The translations under genes were made by a program, and so were the position numbers. Of a DNA stretch of 64,000 bases, positions 1 to 8,616 are shown piece after piece (position 1 is the first letter of the stretch; every line of letters starts with the position of its first letter). Source of the stretch: Planctomycetota bacterium (GTDB taxonomy: Bacteria > Planctomycetota > Phycisphaerae > WQYP01); contig JAKBCC010000001.1 of assembly GCA_021808105.1 (NCBI GenBank), positions 32,753 through 96,752 of the forward strand, given 5' to 3'. Below the pieces are notes generated by a model. That model had not been told where the DNA came from. It was given only the letters and a program-made list of their open reading frames with translations, and did no database searches.

Positions 1-232
1 CGGCCCCATGTGCGTTCACGAGTTTGAGTTCCTCGAAGCCATTGGCGGCGGAGGGAGAAGAATCGGGCGTCGGTAAAATTTCTGCCATTGCGTAATCCTC
101 CGGTCATTGATTTGCATTGCGGAATCCAGCCAACCGCTGTGCGGTCGACGACGTTCATATTTTCAACTCAAGCGGCAACTCGTGCAACCCCGCTGCACCG
201 AATTGTGCCAATTCCGTCTGCGGCCTGGGGAG

Positions 233-730
233 TTACGCGGTCCGGCGGTCGAGCACGAACTTGGCACGCTGGTTTCTCAACATTTGGTACGGACCGATAC
301 ATTTGATTTTCAGGCCAATGCAGACGGTTGGGATTTTGACGCGCTTTATACCATCACTGGCGATTTCGTGCGTCACCACCACGTGCTTGTGGGCTAGGGC
401 AAACGCTATCAGAAAATAATCTGTATCCTGCAGAAAGGCGTTAACAGCATCCGGCCGGTAATTCTGTTGTCGCACCCACTGGGCCGTGGTAGTCAGCGCA
501 GGAATCGTCGCGTCATCAGGCGGGAGAAAGAATTCTTTACCGTGCCGGCCGGCCCATAGCGCCAATTCGTCGTTACCGGCGAGCAGTTCGTCCCCGACTT
601 TTTCAACACTATAGAGTTCTCCGGCCTGGTTTGCGTCCGCCAGCCAATCCCAGAAGGCCGGGCAAAAGTCCATTCCATAGTGAAGATTCTTGGCTTGGAT
701 GAAAATATTTGCGTCCAGAAGATAAGCCAT
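233..730 (-). CDS. DUF4411-type PIN-like domain protein
   Basis: N-terminus MAYLLDANIFIQAKNLHYGMDFCPAFWDWL matches the DUF4411 signature (yLlDaNvfI...FWdWL). Its start overlaps the stop of the upstream ImmA/IrrE gene by 1 nt (ATGA). Confidence 0.7.
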   Translation of the reverse strand: MAYLLDANIFIQAKNLHYGMDFCPAFWDWLADANQAGELYSVEKVGDELLAGNDELALWAGRHGKEFFLPPDDATIPALTTTAQWVRQQNYRPDAVNAFLQDTDYFLIAFALAHKHVVVTHEIASDGIKRVKIPTVCIGLKIKCIGPYQMLRNQRAKFVLDRRTA

Positions 731-1872
731 CAGCCGACAACCTCCAGCTCCGCCCCAAGGGTGCGAAACGTCTGTTCTTTTTTGATCCCCAGCATCTGAA
801 AAGCGTCGCGATAAAGCGTTTGGCCTTCCAGCGTGCTGGTTACCACGGCGCGAGCGAATCGTCGGCTCAGGCGTGCCGCCTGGGTTAGATAGAAGTTGCC
901 GCCACCGGGTCGCTGTAGCTTCCTTAACCGCTCAACTTCGGCGTCGTATTTAATCTGAAATTGCCCGCGGCTGATGCACTCGGCATCCATAAGGCGGCGC
1001 AGGATGACCAGCGTACTGACCTTGAATACGCGAGCCAGGGCGTCCAACATGGAAAGAGCTTGTCCCGCACCGGTCACTTGCTTTCTCAATTCGACAAGCG
1101 GCACCAGCAGTTCGGCGGCGACTCTGTTACACCACACCTCAACGGCCTGCCCAGCCGGCACCGCCAAGCCTGCGTTGGAAACAGCCGATTCTCCCAGCCA
1201 CAGGTGGGCCAATTCATGCGCCAGCGTAAACATCTGGGCGGCTTTGGTGTCTGCTCCGTTGATGAATACCAGGGGCGCAAGCTTGTCCGCCAGGGCAAAG
1301 CCTCTAAATTCCTGCGGGTCAAGCTTCCGCGTGTTGTTGCTTCCCACGACACCGCTGACCATCACCAGGATGCCGGCGTCTTCGGCTCTCTGAATGAATA
1401 ACCGCAGGGCGTCGCTCCAAGTTGGACACTGCTTGCGGCTGCTGACTCCGAAGCCGAGGACATTTTCGATCTGGGAGGCGGCCTTTTCAGGAGCCGATCG
1501 CACCGTTAACGACCCGATGAAGTTCCGCGGCTCTTCCCCGTTTTCCTGGGCATATTCCTGATACCATGCTTGCCGCCGCTGGCAAAGGTAAACAGTATCC
1601 AGCAAATCCGGGCTGGGTATTGCTACGCCACGTCCCTGGAACGTCCGCAAGTCCGGGATGGGAAGATTTTCCTCAGGCGGTTCATTGAGAAACAGAAACC
1701 CCACGGGCACGCGCGATGCGCGGGCAAAATCCTCCAGTTGCCGAAGCGAAGGCGAAGCGTTTCCTGCCAGCCAGTCCTCCAGTCTTGCAAACTTTCGCTT
1801 AAGCGCGGAAGGATCGCCGGAGCGAATCAAAGCCCATTGCAGTACCTTCGGATTTATGGCGACGCTAGTCAC
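730..1872 (-). CDS. ImmA/IrrE family metallo-endopeptidase with N-terminal XRE-like HTH region
   Basis: HEXXH zinc motif in HELAHLWLGE. The N-terminal 70 aa resemble the HTH part of COG2856 proteins. Translationally coupled to the DUF4411 gene. Confidence 0.75.
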   Translation of the reverse strand: MTSVAINPKVLQWALIRSGDPSALKRKFARLEDWLAGNASPSLRQLEDFARASRVPVGFLFLNEPPEENLPIPDLRTFQGRGVAIPSPDLLDTVYLCQRRQAWYQEYAQENGEEPRNFIGSLTVRSAPEKAASQIENVLGFGVSSRKQCPTWSDALRLFIQRAEDAGILVMVSGVVGSNNTRKLDPQEFRGFALADKLAPLVFINGADTKAAQMFTLAHELAHLWLGESAVSNAGLAVPAGQAVEVWCNRVAAELLVPLVELRKQVTGAGQALSMLDALARVFKVSTLVILRRLMDAECISRGQFQIKYDAEVERLRKLQRPGGGNFYLTQAARLSRRFARAVVTSTLEGQTLYRDAFQMLGIKKEQTFRTLGAELEVVG

Positions 1873-2270
1873 GACGTTGCCCCTTTCAAGGGTTCGGGTT
1901 CAATCATTCTACGCGTTCCATATCGTCTGGGCCGCACTGCCGCGTTTCAATCATTTTTCGGCCTCGCCGATTCAATATGAGTTCAAGTTCAGATCTGGGA
2001 CTGGCCATAAGTGGAAATTGTACGGCAAATTTATTTTCCGGCTAGTGGCGGGAGGATCCCATTCGGGACTCGGCGAGTATCGGCGTATTTAAGGAACCAC
2101 CCGTATTTGTCGGTGCCACCGGCGACCTCAAGCCCAAGCTTGAGGCGTTCGTATTCCCGCCGTGCAAGGCCTAGGGCTTTGCCGACAAGCGGAATGTTAG
2201 CAGGCATAAGATCCGGTGTGGCTGGGCCGAGGTAGTCGATTGATTATCGGTAGATCGTCCACTGCGCGGA

Positions 2271-4047: not shown

Positions 4048-4545
4048 ATGCACGCCAGACAGATCAAACGTATTTTCCCAGCGATGCTGCTTTGCATGGG
4101 GGCTATGGCCCTGGCCGGGTGCGACAGCTACTGGGCGGGCGGATACTGGCGGAGCGGGGTTGTCGTTGAGCAACCTGGTCCCTATGCCTATGAGTATTAT
4201 TATGACCCGCAGCTCCAGGCCTATTACTGCTATTACCCCAGCTACGGCTGGCGCTATTGCCCTTCGCCGCCACCGCCGGGTGCTGTGTTCTGGCGCGGTC
4301 CGGTGCCCCTGTATCTGCCCCGGCCGGCCCCAGTTATCGGATTCAATTATTATTTTGATCCTGATCGTCATGTTTACTATTACCGGGGTCCGGACGATCG
4401 GTGGCGCTATTATCCGGGACAGCCACCTCCGGAGGCGCGATTCTGGCATGGGGATCGTCCGGATGCTTTGCCCCGGCCGCCGCGCGATGCACCGGAATGG
4501 CACCCGCGCGGTGAGGATCGCGGACGGCGACGGGAGCGCCATTGA
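4048..4545 (+). CDS. Tyr/Pro/Arg-rich low-complexity lipoprotein
   Basis: Signal peptide with lipobox LAGC. AGGAGG ribosome-binding site 8 nt upstream. Body is dominated by Y, P, R and W runs. Confidence 0.6.
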   Translation: MHARQIKRIFPAMLLCMGAMALAGCDSYWAGGYWRSGVVVEQPGPYAYEYYYDPQLQAYYCYYPSYGWRYCPSPPPPGAVFWRGPVPLYLPRPAPVIGFNYYFDPDRHVYYYRGPDDRWRYYPGQPPPEARFWHGDRPDALPRPPRDAPEWHPRGEDRGRRRERH

Positions 4546-6080: not shown

Positions 6081-8036
6081 ATGTCCGTTGGTGCAAATAT
6101 TGAATCGATCATGCATGAAAATCGCACGTTTGCTCCCCCGGCATCCTTTACTGCCAAAGCCAATATCAGCTCTCAGGAACAATATGAAAGCATGTACCGC
6201 AAGTCCATTGACCACCCCCAGGAATTCTGGGCGGAGATGGCGGGAGACCTGGCTTGGCTGACACCCTACAGCCATGTTCTTGATGACAGCAAGTCCCCTT
6301 TTGTGAAATGGTTCACCGGCGGGAAAATCAACATTGCGCAAAATTGTCTGGACCGGCATGTGGATGCGGGACGGGGCGACAAACCTGCCATTCTCTGGGA
6401 GGGCGAACCAGGTGATACCAAAACATTAACATATCTTGAATTGCTCAAGGAAGTCTGCCGCCTGGCCAATGCGCTGAAATCGCACGGCGTGCGGTCCGGC
6501 GATCGCGTAGCGATTTATATGCCCATGATTCCCCAGGCCGCCGTGGCCATGCTGGCTTGCGCCCGAATTGGAGCGGTACATACCGTTATTTTCGGCGGTT
6601 TTGCGGCTGAATCACTGGCGGATCGTATGAATGATGCGCAAGCTGTGGCATTAATCACAGCCGACGGCGGGTGGCGGCGCGGCAAAATTGTGGAACTGAA
6701 AAATAATGCCGATGCGGCGCTGGCCAAAGCCCCTTGTGTGCGACACTGTATTGTGGTTAAACGCACAGGCCAGAATATCACCATGCAGCCCGGAAGGGAT
6801 GTGTGGTACGAGGATTTTGTCTCGGGCAGCTCCGAACATTGCCCGCCCGCCGCACTGGACAGCGAGCACATGCTCTTTATTTTGTACACCAGCGGCACCA
6901 CCGGCAAGCCTAAGGGTGTGGTGCACACCACCGCCGGCTACTTGCTGGGCGCTTATCTGACATGTAAATATGTATTTGATTTAAGAAAAGAAGATATTTA
7001 CTGGTGTACCGCGGATATCGGCTGGGTAACGGGGCATACGTATATGGTCTACGGCCCGCTGGCCTGTGGGGCCAGTGTGGTTATGTATGAAGGCGCACCC
7101 AATCAGCCGGATATGGACCGGTTCTGGAGTATCGTTGAAAAGTACCGTGTGAGTGTGTTTTACACGGCCCCCACGGCCATCCGAGCCTTTGTAAAATGGG
7201 GTGATCAGTATCCGCAACGCCATGATTTATCAAGCCTCCGCTTGCTGGGAACCGTGGGCGAGCCGATCAACCCGGAAGCGTGGATGTGGTATTACCGCGT
7301 GATTGGTTCCCAGCGCTGCCCCATTGTGGATACCTGGTGGCAGACGGAAACCGGTTCTATTATGTGTACGCCCCTGCCGGGGATCACACCGGGCAAGCCG
7401 GGCAGTTGTGCCATCCCATTTTTTGGGGTGGATCTGGCTGTAGTAGATCGGGACGGGCAGGAAGTGGCCGCGGACACGGGGGGGTATCTGGTCATCCGCA
7501 AACCGTTGCCCAGCATGTTGCGCACGGTGTATGGAGACGATGAGCGTTTTAAGAAACAATATTACAGTGATATTCCCCCCTATTATTTCACGGGCGACGG
7601 AGCGCGGCGGGACAAAGACGGCTACTTCTGGGTCATGGGCCGCGTTGATGATGTGGTCAACGTTGCGGGCCATCGCTTGGGCACTATGGAAGTTGAAAGC
7701 GCGATTGTGGCCCACAGCAAAGTTGCGGAAGCTGCCGTGGTTGGCCGACCCGATGAGCTTAAAGGGCAGGCCCTGTGCGCGTTTGTAACTGTCAAGGCGG
7801 GAATTGCCACCGATGACGCGCTGAAACAGGAATTAAAAGCCTGGGTGACCAAGGAAATCGGTGCCATCGCGCGCCCGGATGAAGTGCGATTCACGGAAAT
7901 GCTGCCCAAAACCCGCTCGGGCAAGATCATGCGGCGCCTGCTGCGTGACATCGCCGCCGGGAAACAGGCCGTCGGGGACACCAGCACGCTGGAAGACTAT
8001 TCCGTTTTGGCCAAGTTGCGCGAAGATCAGGAGTGA
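6081..8036 (+). CDS. acs: acetyl-CoA synthetase (AMP-forming)
   Basis: 651 aa. [14 protein letters not shown]-binding motif, conserved Acs N-terminus, C-terminal [16 protein letters not shown] ribosome-binding site. Confidence 0.95.
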
Positions 8037-8076
8037 GGCGGGGGCCGGGATACGATCACAAACATTGTCCTGGTTA

Positions 8077-8616
8077 TTACTTGCGATTGCGGCGGTTTTT
8101 CCTTATACGATTTCGGACGTGCCATGAGGGAATATCCGAAATTTTCCTTCGTGGTTCGTACTCTAATTCGTCAAAATAGGGGCGAATTTTTTCGTGCAGG
8201 GGATGATGCCAGTTATTCACAACGTCCTTAAACATGGCGTAATGCCGCTCCAGTCGCTTGCAATAGTCGGAATCCATCAGGACCCGCTGCGTAAAAATAG
8301 CCAGCAGGTCTTCGGATAAATCAGACTGCCGATTCAGTGGATCAAGAAATGTCTGTTCCGAAACTGCGGATTTTTCTCCGGGGGGATCAAATGCGTGGCT
8401 GATGGTCGCGACATGCCGACCCAATCGCTTGGATACCACGTTGAACATTGCCCGTCGGCAGTCGCAGCTCGGCTCGGCGCAATATAATTCGAATAACGCA
8501 AATTCTTCTTCCTTCCCCTCACGCCGGTGCCAACGGCCGCCGGATTGCAAGATAATACATCGTGTCTCCGCGGCACCAAGTTCCGGGTACAAAACGGTAA
8601 ACATCACCATCGACAT
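8077..8616 (-). CDS. hypothetical protein (basic C-terminus)
   Basis: ORF only; convergent with acs; no recognisable motif. Confidence 0.35.
   Translation of the reverse strand: MSMVMFTVLYPELGAAETRCIILQSGGRWHRREGKEEEFALFELYCAEPSCDCRRAMFNVVSKRLGRHVATISHAFDPPGEKSAVSEQTFLDPLNRQSDLSEDLLAIFTQRVLMDSDYCKRLERHYAMFKDVVNNWHHPLHEKIRPYFDELEYEPRRKISDIPSWHVRNRIRKNRRNRK

Follow-up and report, generated by a model that had tools for sequence, protein, structure and literature searches.

The gene pair and its genomic setting

Within the stretch of Planctomycetota DNA analysed here (64,000 nucleotides, hereafter the window), the minus strand carries a gene for a protein combining a helix-turn-helix (HTH) domain with a metallopeptidase domain of the ImmA/IrrE type, followed directly by a gene for a DUF4411 family protein. 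That such a pair is present had been proposed in a preliminary description made from the sequence; a Pfam search for the two families, named there beforehand as a point at which the proposal might fail, placed both proteins above the respective cutoffs. In routine NCBI annotation the members of such pairs are named ‘ImmA/IrrE family metallo-endopeptidase’ or ‘XRE family transcriptional regulator’ and ‘DUF4411 family protein’. The features of the locus are as follows.

1..88, minus strand: next island gene, not part of the module; its ATG is at 88 and it runs past the window edge
233..730, minus strand: gene for the DUF4411 protein, a predicted PIN-like nuclease and presumed toxin (165 aa, ATG start; Pfam)
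728..732, minus strand: gene junction TGATG, in which the stop (732..730) and the start (730..728) have one base in common
730..1872, minus strand: HTH–Peptidase_M78 gene (ImmA/IrrE, COG2856; hereafter the ImmA gene), 380 aa (open reading frame list and Pfam); GTG start at 1872..1870 and TGA stop at 732..730, read from the sequence
733..915, minus strand: highly conserved C-terminal tail of the 380-aa protein, residues 320-380 (GGxFYLTQ…RLSRRFARA…STLEGQTLYRDAFQMLG)
741..745, minus strand: GGAGG, Shine-Dalgarno site of the DUF4411 gene, 10 nt 5′ of its ATG and within the 3′ end of the ImmA gene
988..1386, minus strand: Peptidase_M78 catalytic domain, residues 163-295 (Pfam envelope)
1557..1671, minus strand: conserved linker, predicted to be disordered, approximately residues 68-105 (invariant columns; pLDDT 33-49)
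1675..1872, minus strand: N-terminal Xre-type HTH domain, approximately residues 1-66 (AF2 and Foldseek)
1873..2030, minus strand: conserved 158-nt leader (comparison with the related locus L003)
2031..2262, minus strand: frameshifted pseudogene remnant, corresponding to the ~70 final codons of a gene for a 316-aa protein and abutting the lipA stop at 2271

The two proteins

The 380-aa protein, whose homologues are nearly all 377-384 aa long, matches Peptidase_M78 (PF06114) across the entire profile (positions 1-123 of 123; E 2.1e-14, 53.8 bits versus a cutoff of 22), and 24 of 24 homologues match this family too. The HEXXH motif is formed by H219-E220-L-A-H223 (HELAH; nt 1218..1204, minus strand), which aligns with HEISH of IrrE, and the third zinc ligand is E245 (nt 1140..1138), which aligns with E113 of IrrE, the active-site residues of the latter being 82, 83, 86 and 113 (PMC6868357). 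All four residues (H219, E220, H223 and E245) are invariant in the alignment of homologues at 60-97% identity. In an AF2 model of moderate confidence (pLDDT 62) the protease domain takes an IrrE-like fold, with Foldseek returning IrrE (3dti, E 3.8e-4) and the PprI-ssDNA structure (8sln, E 1.1e-3), both with prob 1.00.

The N-terminus is modelled as five short helices (AF2 pLDDT ~77-91), and in Foldseek searches this part of the model matches the Xre antitoxin 3omt (prob 0.99, TMt 0.66, rmsd 2.0) and also the restriction-modification (R-M) controller protein 4jqd. Pfam gives no HTH match in the window protein itself, and weak HTH_3 matches in 10 of its 24 homologues. Between the HTH and the protease domain, the linker region holds the invariant P65-P66, P71, D74 and R76-T77 (‘PIPDLRT’), together with the motif LCQxRQxWY, and may be a segment for cleavage or for binding of the partner. 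The C-terminal tail has many invariant columns, yet it is modelled at pLDDT 24-43 in the monomer; it is our candidate for the segment that neutralizes the toxin. The whole protein is presumed to serve as antitoxin, repressor and sensor. NCBIfam adds no meaningful match (the spr1629 antitoxin model scores 15 bits versus a cutoff of 335). No separate Xre gene adjoins the pair, either in the window or in its source contigs; the only candidate substrate of the protease is the HTH or the linker of the 380-aa protein itself.

The DUF4411 protein is a single-domain protein that matches the whole family profile (PF14367, positions 1-159 of 159; E 5.4e-50, 169.7 bits versus a cutoff of 23.5). The PIN-like acidic signature that had been noticed at its N-terminus is borne out by MAYLLD6ANIFI, with D6 invariant in 22 homologues. 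In the same homologues E48 and E122 likewise do not vary, and an acidic tetrad is completed by D104, with conservation of at least 90%; four conserved, negatively charged active-site residues are the criterion given for the DUF4411.1 group (Matelska, Steczkiewicz & Ginalski 2017, PMC5499597). A full-length family match, four acidic residues and a single domain encoded 3′ of a fused HTH–DUF955 gene are all found here. The AF2 model, built on a 22-sequence alignment, reaches a pLDDT of only 50.6, too low for independent confirmation of the PIN fold, which is predicted from sequence through the Pfam match and through matches to chains of known structure (below). We presume the protein to be a PIN-like nuclease, its activity being predicted from sequence. 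Nothing among the PADLOC models matches it, those of Rosmer toxins included.

Homologues of both proteins occur together in PDB entry 9vzy, which comprises three chains of the HTH protein and six chains of DUF4411 and was, like 9vzz, deposited in 2026. Homology to the window pair extends over nearly the full length of both proteins. The match to 9vzy_A, named ‘HTH cro/C1-type domain-containing protein’ (profile E 2e-27), spans residues 6-344, whereby it further backs the HTH assignment and reaches into the C-terminal tail, while the DUF4411 protein matches 9vzy_D and 9vzz_A, both named ‘DUF4411 family protein’ (profile E 9e-10 and 2e-9). The relationship is distant (phmmer E of the single window proteins 1.6e-15 and 1.6e-8). 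The window protein and 9vzy_A have in common the HEXXH and the Glu at the place of E245; E254, invariant in the subfamily of the window protein, is Ala in 9vzy_A. The deposition of both partners in one entry supports the formation of a physical complex by the homologous pair and, indirectly, by the window proteins. The module had been described as functionally uncharacterised, and literature searches found neither a paper on its function nor one accompanying 9vzy/9vzz; the structures themselves, though, are now available.

Gene junction and leader

The two genes are adjacent, with that of the presumed antitoxin first and with overlapping stop and start codons, which is the gene layout of toxin-antitoxin (TA) systems of type II. 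An overlap of 1 nt had been noted correctly, but as an ATGA junction; the junction is TGATG, and ATGA would be an overlap of 4 nt. Among 85 relatives, the 1-nt overlap (TGATG or TAATG) is found in 64, the 4-nt overlap in nine, and abutting genes in six. In most of them the junction strings also contain GGAG or GGGG at the place equivalent to the Shine-Dalgarno site of the DUF4411 gene, and the ImmA gene is preceded by a site of its own (AAGGGG, 1885..1880), 7 nt 5′ of the GTG.

The leader upstream of the ImmA gene is nearly identical to that of L003, clearly above the level of the coding DNA (~91% across the 2,043-nt match). It includes a candidate -10 element, TACAAT (2022..2017), inside TTGCCGTACAATTT; L003 and L006 have TACAAT as well. 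Possible operators are a pair of 15-nt direct repeats in the leader (1899-1913 and 1946-1960, 47 nt spacing; minus-strand CG[TA]A[GA]AATGATTGAA). Any function of the leader is putative, because a generic sigma-70 promoter scan gave no promoter in 1-2400; terminator-like matches there are at chance level, and Rfam gives no RNA near the locus.

Pairing, spread and selection

The arrangement was rightly held to be recurrent. An ImmA gene lies directly upstream of the DUF4411 gene and on the same strand in 85 of 85 related loci, so that the pairing is far beyond chance, and a library with one genome per species contains at least 568 confirmed matches. Protein clusters number more than 6,400 for DUF4411 and more than 8,000 for ImmA. 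The pair has spread horizontally, being found in more than 20 phyla, including one archaeon, as well as on plasmids and in defence loci. Of 46 plasmid records with the pair, 25 are conjugative; there it stands in arrays of classical addiction TA pairs and is adjoined by true VapBC pairs. One DUF4411 homologue, from an Enterobacter IncF record (NZ_CP056782.1), is ~45% identical to the window protein. Phage genomes nearly lack it, with two weak matches.

Both genes are under strong purifying selection. When compared with relatives at 79-94% identity, dN/dS ranges overall from 0.08 to 0.16, with values of 0.13 and 0.16 for the ImmA gene and of 0.08 and 0.10 for the DUF4411 gene, and an identical DUF4411 protein is encoded on 13 independent contigs.

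Four loci with frameshifted ImmA genes (L051, L064, L074 and L077) were considered as natural ‘toxin-only’ loci and discarded: all four are metagenome-assembled genomes with isolate names starting ‘MFD’, and the frameshifts are suspected to be sequencing errors of long-read assemblies. Separately, locus L034 seems to retain DUF4411 with almost no ImmA gene, which does not sit easily with a lethal toxin, unless this copy is inactive.

Neighbourhood of the pair

The preliminary description placed the pair in isolation between lipA and the contig edge, and neither part of this picture holds. Position 1 is the edge of the window only: a minus-strand gene starts at 88, and the contigs continue for at least 10 kb, a variable, R-M-rich island extending leftward in public contigs with identical proteins. 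The gene at 1..88 encodes a 156-aa Bro-N protein with a C-terminal remnant of a type III methyltransferase (full gene L086:10643-11113; Pfam Bro-N 3.5e-7, PADLOC PDC-S13 7e-30, MTase_III positions 502-545 of 575), and R-M remnants lie beside the pair in the source contig.

On the lipA side, the pseudogene remnant aligns with residues 249-316 of the 316-aa protein at 62% identity (tblastn), with a 4-nt indel in the alignment, and the DNA match to L003 covers window positions 224-2262. An intact 316-aa gene precedes the pair in its two closest relatives. The former boundary of the island is marked by the remnant, which ties the pair to a DISARM-like one; in the closest relative, the pair adjoins a DrmD-like helicase in a DISARM-like locus. 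As a third component of the module the 316-aa gene was rejected, being present only in the two closest relatives out of more than 85 loci and having no Pfam or PADLOC match; a 58-aa open reading frame at 2031-2207, considered as a small antitoxin gene, belongs to the pseudogene remnant.

Elsewhere, the pair is embedded in type I R-M operons, between hsdS and hsdR, in ~23% of relatives (the neighbour directly upstream has Methylase_S in 17 of 77, and the one directly downstream has HSDR_N in 18 of 79). L014 and L020 are examples of the order hsdM–hsdS–pair–hsdR. No hsd genes lie beside the pair in the window or its source contigs, and the composition of the module gives no sign of recent transfer (56% GC versus 55% for the window). 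Relatives without the whole island exist. In this genome the module survives, under continued selection, as part of a defence island beside lipA that is otherwise eroding.

Comparison with known systems

A fused HTH–COG2856 protein encoded with a PIN protein has been predicted to form a TA system (Makarova, Wolf & Koonin 2009, PMC2701414; Matelska, Steczkiewicz & Ginalski 2017, PMC5499597), and the TA or abortive-infection function suggested in the preliminary description is the published prediction for this very architecture. Both papers offer predictions only, with the switch assumed to be the protease-mediated removal of the HTH. The architecture found here is identical to that of the predicted ‘three-component’ HTH-DUF955(COG2856)/DUF4411.1 system, with HEXXH retained and four acidic nuclease residues; there is no essential difference, and the window pair is one more instance. 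The same function fits the RosmerTA class, in which a Zn-peptidase antitoxin is combined with a toxin (Millman 2022 preprint; Ernits 2023, PMC10440598), and is further supported by 9vzy, by the plasmid TA arrays and by the placement of the pair in R-M and DISARM surroundings.

With RosmerTA the pair shares a Zn-peptidase (ImmA-like) antitoxin, often with an N-terminal HTH, in a two-gene operon with interchangeable toxins, and published work has linked an ImmA antitoxin node to PIN-like toxins. The rmrA deletion mutant of RosmerTA was not transformable, possibly through toxicity. Among the PADLOC models, 14 RmrA HMMs match the 380-aa protein at E ≤ 0.001 (best 2.7e-11), one of them, PDLC03948, near full length (residues 24-306), and capP matches slightly better (1.4e-13, the best PADLOC match). 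The toxins differ: here it is PIN-like, whereas the RmrT of phage Kita depolarizes membranes, and DUF4411 matches no RmrT model. PADLOC would not call the pair RosmerTA, because none of its toxin models matches DUF4411.

VapBC systems resemble the pair in having a toxin of the PIN superfamily with an N-terminal hhhD motif, an overlapping antitoxin gene that comes first, and a DNA-binding antitoxin. However, DUF4411 forms a PIN-like family of its own, and instead of the small labile antitoxin typical of type II systems, a protein of ~80 aa degraded by Lon or Clp, the window encodes one of 380 aa with its own conserved, apparently active metalloprotease domain.

A likely model for signal-activated cleavage in the present pair is provided by the protease–repressor switches ImmR/ImmA, DdrO/IrrE(PprI) and CapH/CapP, which share with it an M78 domain with HEXXH and a Glu ligand, an Xre-type HTH partner, the IrrE/PprI fold and, for CapP, the best PADLOC match. 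In contrast to these switches, HTH and protease are here joined in one polypeptide, with no separate repressor gene, and a co-translated nuclease is the output where theirs is an integrative and conjugative element (ICE), a DNA-repair regulon or a CBASS operon. Furthermore, the GAF-like C-terminal domain of IrrE is replaced by an unrelated conserved tail.

The anticodon nuclease PrrC is a latent RNase encoded within a type I R-M locus, EcoprrI, between hsdS and hsdR. In the R-M-embedded relatives the pair takes the same slot, but the proteins are unrelated to PrrC, and the window pair has no flanking hsd genes.

Proposed mechanism and alternative explanations

We lean towards reading the pair as a two-gene, translationally coupled TA-type module that belongs to the RosmerTA-like class with HTH–Zn-peptidase antitoxins and has a PIN-like DUF4411 effector; judging from the conserved residues, the catalytic sites of both proteins are intact. 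The most likely mechanism combines sequestration and repression with a trigger-activated protease step that frees an RNase. Both proteins would be made together, and a DUF4411 dimer would be bound by the 380-aa protein, probably via the unstructured C-terminal tail and/or the linker, and so be kept inactive, while the N-terminal HTH would repress the promoter of the operon itself. A phage- or damage-derived cue, comparable to ssDNA or Zn for PprI/IrrE and CapP, would then activate the M78 domain to cut the antitoxin itself, or its HTH or neutralizing segment, in cis or in trans; the complex would dissociate, and the PIN-like enzyme could cleave RNA (tRNA, rRNA or mRNA). The ensuing growth stop would amount to abortive infection or post-segregational killing. 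Toxicity, RNA target, trigger and proteolysis are what we infer, since literature searches returned no published experiment on any member of the family.

There is a sizeable minority chance that the pair works mainly as an addiction (post-segregational killing) or island-stabilizing module, not in phage defence, and persists because its loss kills the cell. Its occurrence in arrays of classical addiction pairs on plasmids, many of them conjugative, its integrity here while the flanking island genes decayed, and its near absence from phage genomes all point this way, against which must be set the precise insertion into type I R-M operons seen in roughly one relative in four, the DISARM-like locus of the closest relative and the anti-phage activity shown by other members of the ImmA-antitoxin class. 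The two roles are not mutually exclusive.

We regard it as unlikely that the HTH–M78 protein acts purely as a transcriptional switch, that is, as a repressor that cleaves itself as LexA does (ImmR and ImmA fused in one protein) and sets the level of DUF4411, and of hsdR too in the embedded loci, with no stoichiometric neutralization. Matelska (2017, PMC5499597) proposed this mechanism and Makarova (2009, PMC2701414) suggested it, and the HTH, the conserved leader with its direct repeats and the position of the pair directly upstream of hsdR in R-M-embedded relatives are consistent with it. The 1-nt overlap, however, enforces co-translation from one mRNA, so that toxin would be made whenever repressor is made; moreover, homologous proteins were deposited together in one PDB entry, and the long invariant tail, which belongs neither to the HTH nor to the protease, is left unexplained.

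An equally doubtful proposal concerns the protease step itself: the M78 domain might be a non-proteolytic sensor or binding scaffold, as in Rir/Crh, with the toxin freed by competitive binding of the trigger and no cleavage. Rir/Crh offer a precedent for non-cleaving COG2856 proteins (PMC6868357), and no cleavage site can be identified from the sequence of the 380-aa protein, but the invariance of its HEXXH and Glu residues, and their retention in the far more distant 9vzy_A, argue for catalysis.

It is also conceivable, if rather improbable, that the pair is a ‘guard’ of restriction-type immunity, whose HTH–M78 protein would check whether the R-M or DISARM complex encoded alongside is intact, or sense anti-restriction proteins of phages, and whose RNase would be released as a second-line abortive response, on the same logic as PrrC though with unrelated proteins. 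This suggestion arises from the exact insertion of relatives between hsdS and hsdR and, in the closest relative, from the position next to the DrmD-like helicase; if it were true, the guard in the window would have outlived the system that it guarded.

That the pair is a dead relic of island decay, no longer functional in this genome, is very improbable: although upstream a mere pseudogene remnant is left, downstream a C-terminal trace is all that persists of the methyltransferase, and relatives have lost the whole island, both open reading frames retain their full length and every catalytic residue, dN/dS is ~0.1, the identical toxin protein recurs on independent contigs, and the leader, both Shine-Dalgarno sites and the overlap have stayed intact.

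Significance

The locus is an intact copy of a very common and already catalogued module, real but ordinary, and in itself it adds little, being one of thousands of copies of the module predicted in 2009 and 2017. It does exemplify the persistence of such modules beyond the defence islands with which they arrived. The family is what matters: it is extremely widespread, and the literature searches found no published account of what activates its protease-bearing antitoxin or of what DUF4411 would cleave. The recurrent insertion of the pair between hsdS and hsdR provides a concrete, testable link between TA modules and restriction systems.

The gene pair and its products

The presumed antitoxin and toxin genes lie next to each other on the minus strand, preceded by a short leader (1873..2030).

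Features of the pair and its leader (window coordinates)
2017-2022: TACAAT within TTGCCGTACAATTT, directly after the stop of an upstream gene remnant
1946-1960 and 1899-1913, minus: two 15-nt direct repeats, CG[TA]A[GA]AATGATTGAA, 47 nt apart, in the leader
7 nt 5' of the antitoxin GTG, minus: AAGGGG (sequence)
1872..730, minus: antitoxin ORF, 380 aa, GTG start
1557-1671, minus: conserved linker, antitoxin residues 68-105 (…PPEExLPIPDLRT…LCQRRQAWY)
733-915, minus: conserved C-terminal tail, antitoxin residues 320-380 (alignment and AF2)
10 nt 5' of the toxin ATG, minus: GGAGG (sequence)
730..233, minus: toxin ORF, 165 aa, ATG start, directly after the antitoxin ORF

The antitoxin TGA stop occupies 732..730 and the toxin ATG 730..728, so that a single base is shared and the junction reads TGATG. 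The preliminary description was thus right about the 1-nt overlap and wrong about its ATGA, which would mean an overlap of 4 nt; with this and a second small correction, concerning the contig edge, the pair is present as it had been described.

A Pfam search, the check by which that description could have been overturned, bears out both family assignments. DUF4411 matches the toxin over its full length (E 5.4e-50; 169.7 bits versus a cutoff of 23.5), and Peptidase_M78 covers antitoxin residues 163-295 (E 2.1e-14; 53.8 bits versus a cutoff of 22). Among 22 DUF4411 homologues, D6 (in MAYLLDANIFI), E48 and E122 of the toxin show no variation and D104 almost none; judged by sequence, these four positions correspond to the four acidic residues described as the site of the family (Matelska et al. 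2017, PMC5499597). The antitoxin residues H219-E220-L-A-H223 and E245 do not vary among 24 homologues of 60-97% identity. When profiles are aligned to solved structures, HELAH falls on HEISH of IrrE, and E245 on the Glu of IrrE 'IETLCN', namely E113, the third active-site residue of that enzyme (PMC6868357). The modelled protease domain also matches IrrE/PprI structures (3dti, E 3.8e-4; 8sln, PprI with ssDNA).

The N-terminal HTH has no Pfam match in the window antitoxin itself. It is recognized from weak HTH_3 matches in 10 of the 24 homologues, from an AF2 model in which five confident helices (pLDDT about 77-91) superpose on the Xre-family antitoxin 3omt (prob 0.99, TMt 0.66), and from PDB chain 9vzy_A, entitled 'HTH cro/C1-type domain-containing protein', which matches residues 6 to 344 (profile E 2e-27). 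The linker and the C-terminal tail hold many invariant residues, yet are modelled with very low confidence in the monomer, and we infer that they are candidate partner-binding or cleavage segments. Within the predicted-disordered linker, D-L-R-T is invariant; DdrO is cut by IrrE at an L/R bond (PMC6868357), and, speculatively and by analogy, the antitoxin motif might be a site of self-cleavage or of toxin binding.

Between the window and its closest relative (locus L003), the leader is nearly identical, and better conserved than the coding DNA. Its direct repeats and TACAAT may represent putative operators and a promoter; a similar TACAAT-containing motif precedes the ImmA gene in the two closest relatives (L003 and L006) and the methyltransferase gene in L003. 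A generic promoter scan was negative, calling neither the repeats nor TACAAT.

Recurrence and coupling of the two genes

That the arrangement recurs, as had been proposed, is borne out by the 85 loci examined, each of which has an ImmA homologue immediately upstream of the toxin gene and in the same orientation; the two genes, obligatorily coupled, overlap by 1 nt in 64 loci and by 4 nt in nine, and abut in six. Where the gap between the genes seems large, in four MAGs with isolate names beginning 'MFD', the ImmA gene is frameshifted; these are suspected long-read assemblies, and the frameshifts suspected sequencing errors. At one further locus (L034:7855-8480) the DUF4411 ORF is intact and the ImmA gene is reduced to its last 46 codons, an orphan 'toxin' not expected if the DUF4411 protein is lethal.

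The toxin has more than 6,400 clusters in the protein database, and the antitoxin more than 8,000 among the matches listed, nearly all of 377-384 aa. Searching one genome per species yielded at least 568 confirmed matches, the best 80 of which include Acidobacteriota, Planctomycetota, Verrucomicrobiota, Chloroflexota, Actinomycetota, Nitrospirota, many Proteobacteria, Myxococcota, Omnitrophota, WOR-3, Latescibacterota and one Methanobacteriota archaeon, among others, most of these 80 at just 57-64% identity. The pair is mobile across phyla and also across replicons: there are 46 toxin matches on plasmids, 25 of them conjugative, and two weak ones among more than 50,000 phage records.

A probably eroding island beside lipA

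The contig edge formerly placed beside the pair is only the edge of the window; the source contigs continue leftward with an island. Thirteen public contigs (e.g. GCA_027326345.1) encode a toxin protein identical to that of the window. LipA falls in one cluster, at 90% or more, with a protein labelled 'Phycisphaerae bacterium', which makes a planctomycete the probable host. The variable island runs past window position 1 (L086:10643-20498, on a source contig), the first 88 nt of the window (minus strand) being the start of its first gene.

Genes of the island, from the source contigs
ATG at window 88, minus: Bro-N protein whose C-terminus is a type III methyltransferase trace
Left of the window: 81-aa ORF
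Left of the window: SLFN_AlbA_2/HATPase_c_4/Fic-like_C protein, 507 aa in contigs L086 and L088, 495-503 aa in L087 and L089
Left of the window: type II N6/N4 methyltransferase (PADLOC MTase_II, E 4e-133)
Left of the window, after this methyltransferase: 222-aa unknown protein, possibly its restriction partner
Left of the window: protein exceeding 900 aa, matching no family
Left of the window: several unknown proteins
2031-2262, minus: frameshifted remnant of a 316-aa gene, comprising its final ~70 codons (alignment with relatives)

The 316-aa gene, whose product has no Pfam or PADLOC match, is intact only in L003 and L006, upstream of the pair. A 58-aa ORF at 2031-2207 was rejected as a gene, being part of its remnant. 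The DNA match to L003 (91%) spans exactly 224 to 2262, that is the pair, leader and remnant, and ends 9 nt short of the lipA stop. The M20–PRAI–lipA synteny is retained in close relatives of the host, which lack the island and have GH43 and Ldh genes following lipA; a fainter trace of the remnant (~105 nt; L093:6930-7035) follows lipA in such island-less relatives. On the simplest interpretation, an old island adjoining lipA is eroding, and the toxin–antitoxin-like pair is the part still intact and selected in this lineage. The module (56% GC) does not stand out in composition from the window (55%).

At 4048-4545 (plus strand), the window encodes a protein of 165 aa that is rich in Tyr, Trp and Pro, has a lipoprotein-like signal (…MLLCMGAMALAGC…) and matches no Pfam family; an ORF of 165-185 aa, likewise without a Pfam match, occupies the same place in related contigs, flanked by the genes for the M20 peptidase and PRAI.

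In L003 (2891-9264; 94% identical proteins), a DrmD-like SNF2 helicase (PADLOC E 6e-204) and the 316-aa gene flank one side of the pair; on the other is a type III-like methyltransferase in two fragments, of 78 aa and 132 aa. This DISARM-like setting is itself partly broken. Neighbours elsewhere include AbiEii-type AAA_21, GmrSD, RhuM, methyltransferases, relaxase and T4SS genes, and ordinary housekeeping genes.

Relation to known systems

The pair belongs to an already known and heavily catalogued module. Fused COG2856–Xre genes were found often in operons with PIN or RelE toxins, and a three-component toxin–antitoxin system was proposed for them (Makarova, Wolf and Koonin 2009, PMC2701414). 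DUF4411.1 genes were then placed downstream of fused HTH–DUF955 genes, self-cleavage of the HTH protein activated by stress was suggested, and PIN-like genes were found coupled to type I R-M subunits (Matelska et al. 2017, PMC5499597). The preliminary prediction of a toxin–antitoxin or abortive-infection role agrees with these proposals and is supported. The configuration of a Zn-peptidase antitoxin and a toxin has been named RosmerTA, and an rmrA deletion mutant could not be transformed, possibly owing to toxicity (Millman et al. 2022, citing Matelska for the configuration). An ImmA antitoxin node adjoins PIN-like toxins, and phage defence has been shown for one RosmerTA system (Ernits et al. 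2023, PMC10440598). The PADLOC models for RmrA and capP match the window antitoxin, whereas none of PADLOC's models matches DUF4411. A homologous pair has been co-deposited in one structure, PDB 9vzy (three chains of the HTH protein and six of the DUF4411 protein), and 9vzz holds the DUF4411 protein alone; 9vzy is recent, being absent from a structure library ending 2026-04-08, and a literature search found no paper on either entry.

Proposed mechanism and alternatives

A DUF4411 dimer would be sequestered by the 380-aa protein, through whose HTH the operon would be autorepressed; a cue would activate the M78 domain, by analogy with the activation of PprI/IrrE and CapP by ssDNA or Zn, and cleavage of the antitoxin would free the nuclease to cut RNA. 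The pair might serve addiction, not defence, a tentative reading that is compatible with this mechanism. Two plasmid copies sit within arrays of classical addiction modules: on Sphingomonas pCADAB1 (L097, 2064-5489), RES–Xre and VapBC are followed by ImmA–DUF4411, and on the Enterobacter IncF plasmid p1 (L096, 1688-4501), DUF1778–GNAT by XRE–DUF4411, with a toxin 45% identical.

A purely transcriptional LexA-like switch is improbable, and there is little likelihood that the antitoxin is a non-cleaving scaffold like Rir; the catalytic residues of the pair are intact. A PrrC-like 'guard' of restriction systems is suggested by insertions between hsdS and hsdR, and appears decidedly unlikely. The gene immediately upstream is HsdS (Methylase_S) in 17 of 77 relative loci, and that immediately downstream HsdR (HSDR_N) in 18 of 79 or ResIII in 21 of 79, so that about a quarter of copies occupy one precise slot.

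The restriction slot in relatives
Pair at about 6850-8490: hsdM–hsdS–[ImmA–DUF4411]–hsdR in loci L001, L013, L014, L020, L025, L047, L053, L058, L063, L071, L082, L083 and others

At these loci a few tens of nt at most separate the DUF4411 stop from the hsdR start. Finally, that the pair is a dead relic is scarcely credible: both genes are under purifying selection, since comparison with relatives whose proteins are 94% and 79% identical gives dN/dS values of 0.13 and 0.16 for the antitoxin gene and of 0.08 and 0.10 for the toxin gene. For the family, the Enterobacter IncF copy would provide a convenient experimental model.
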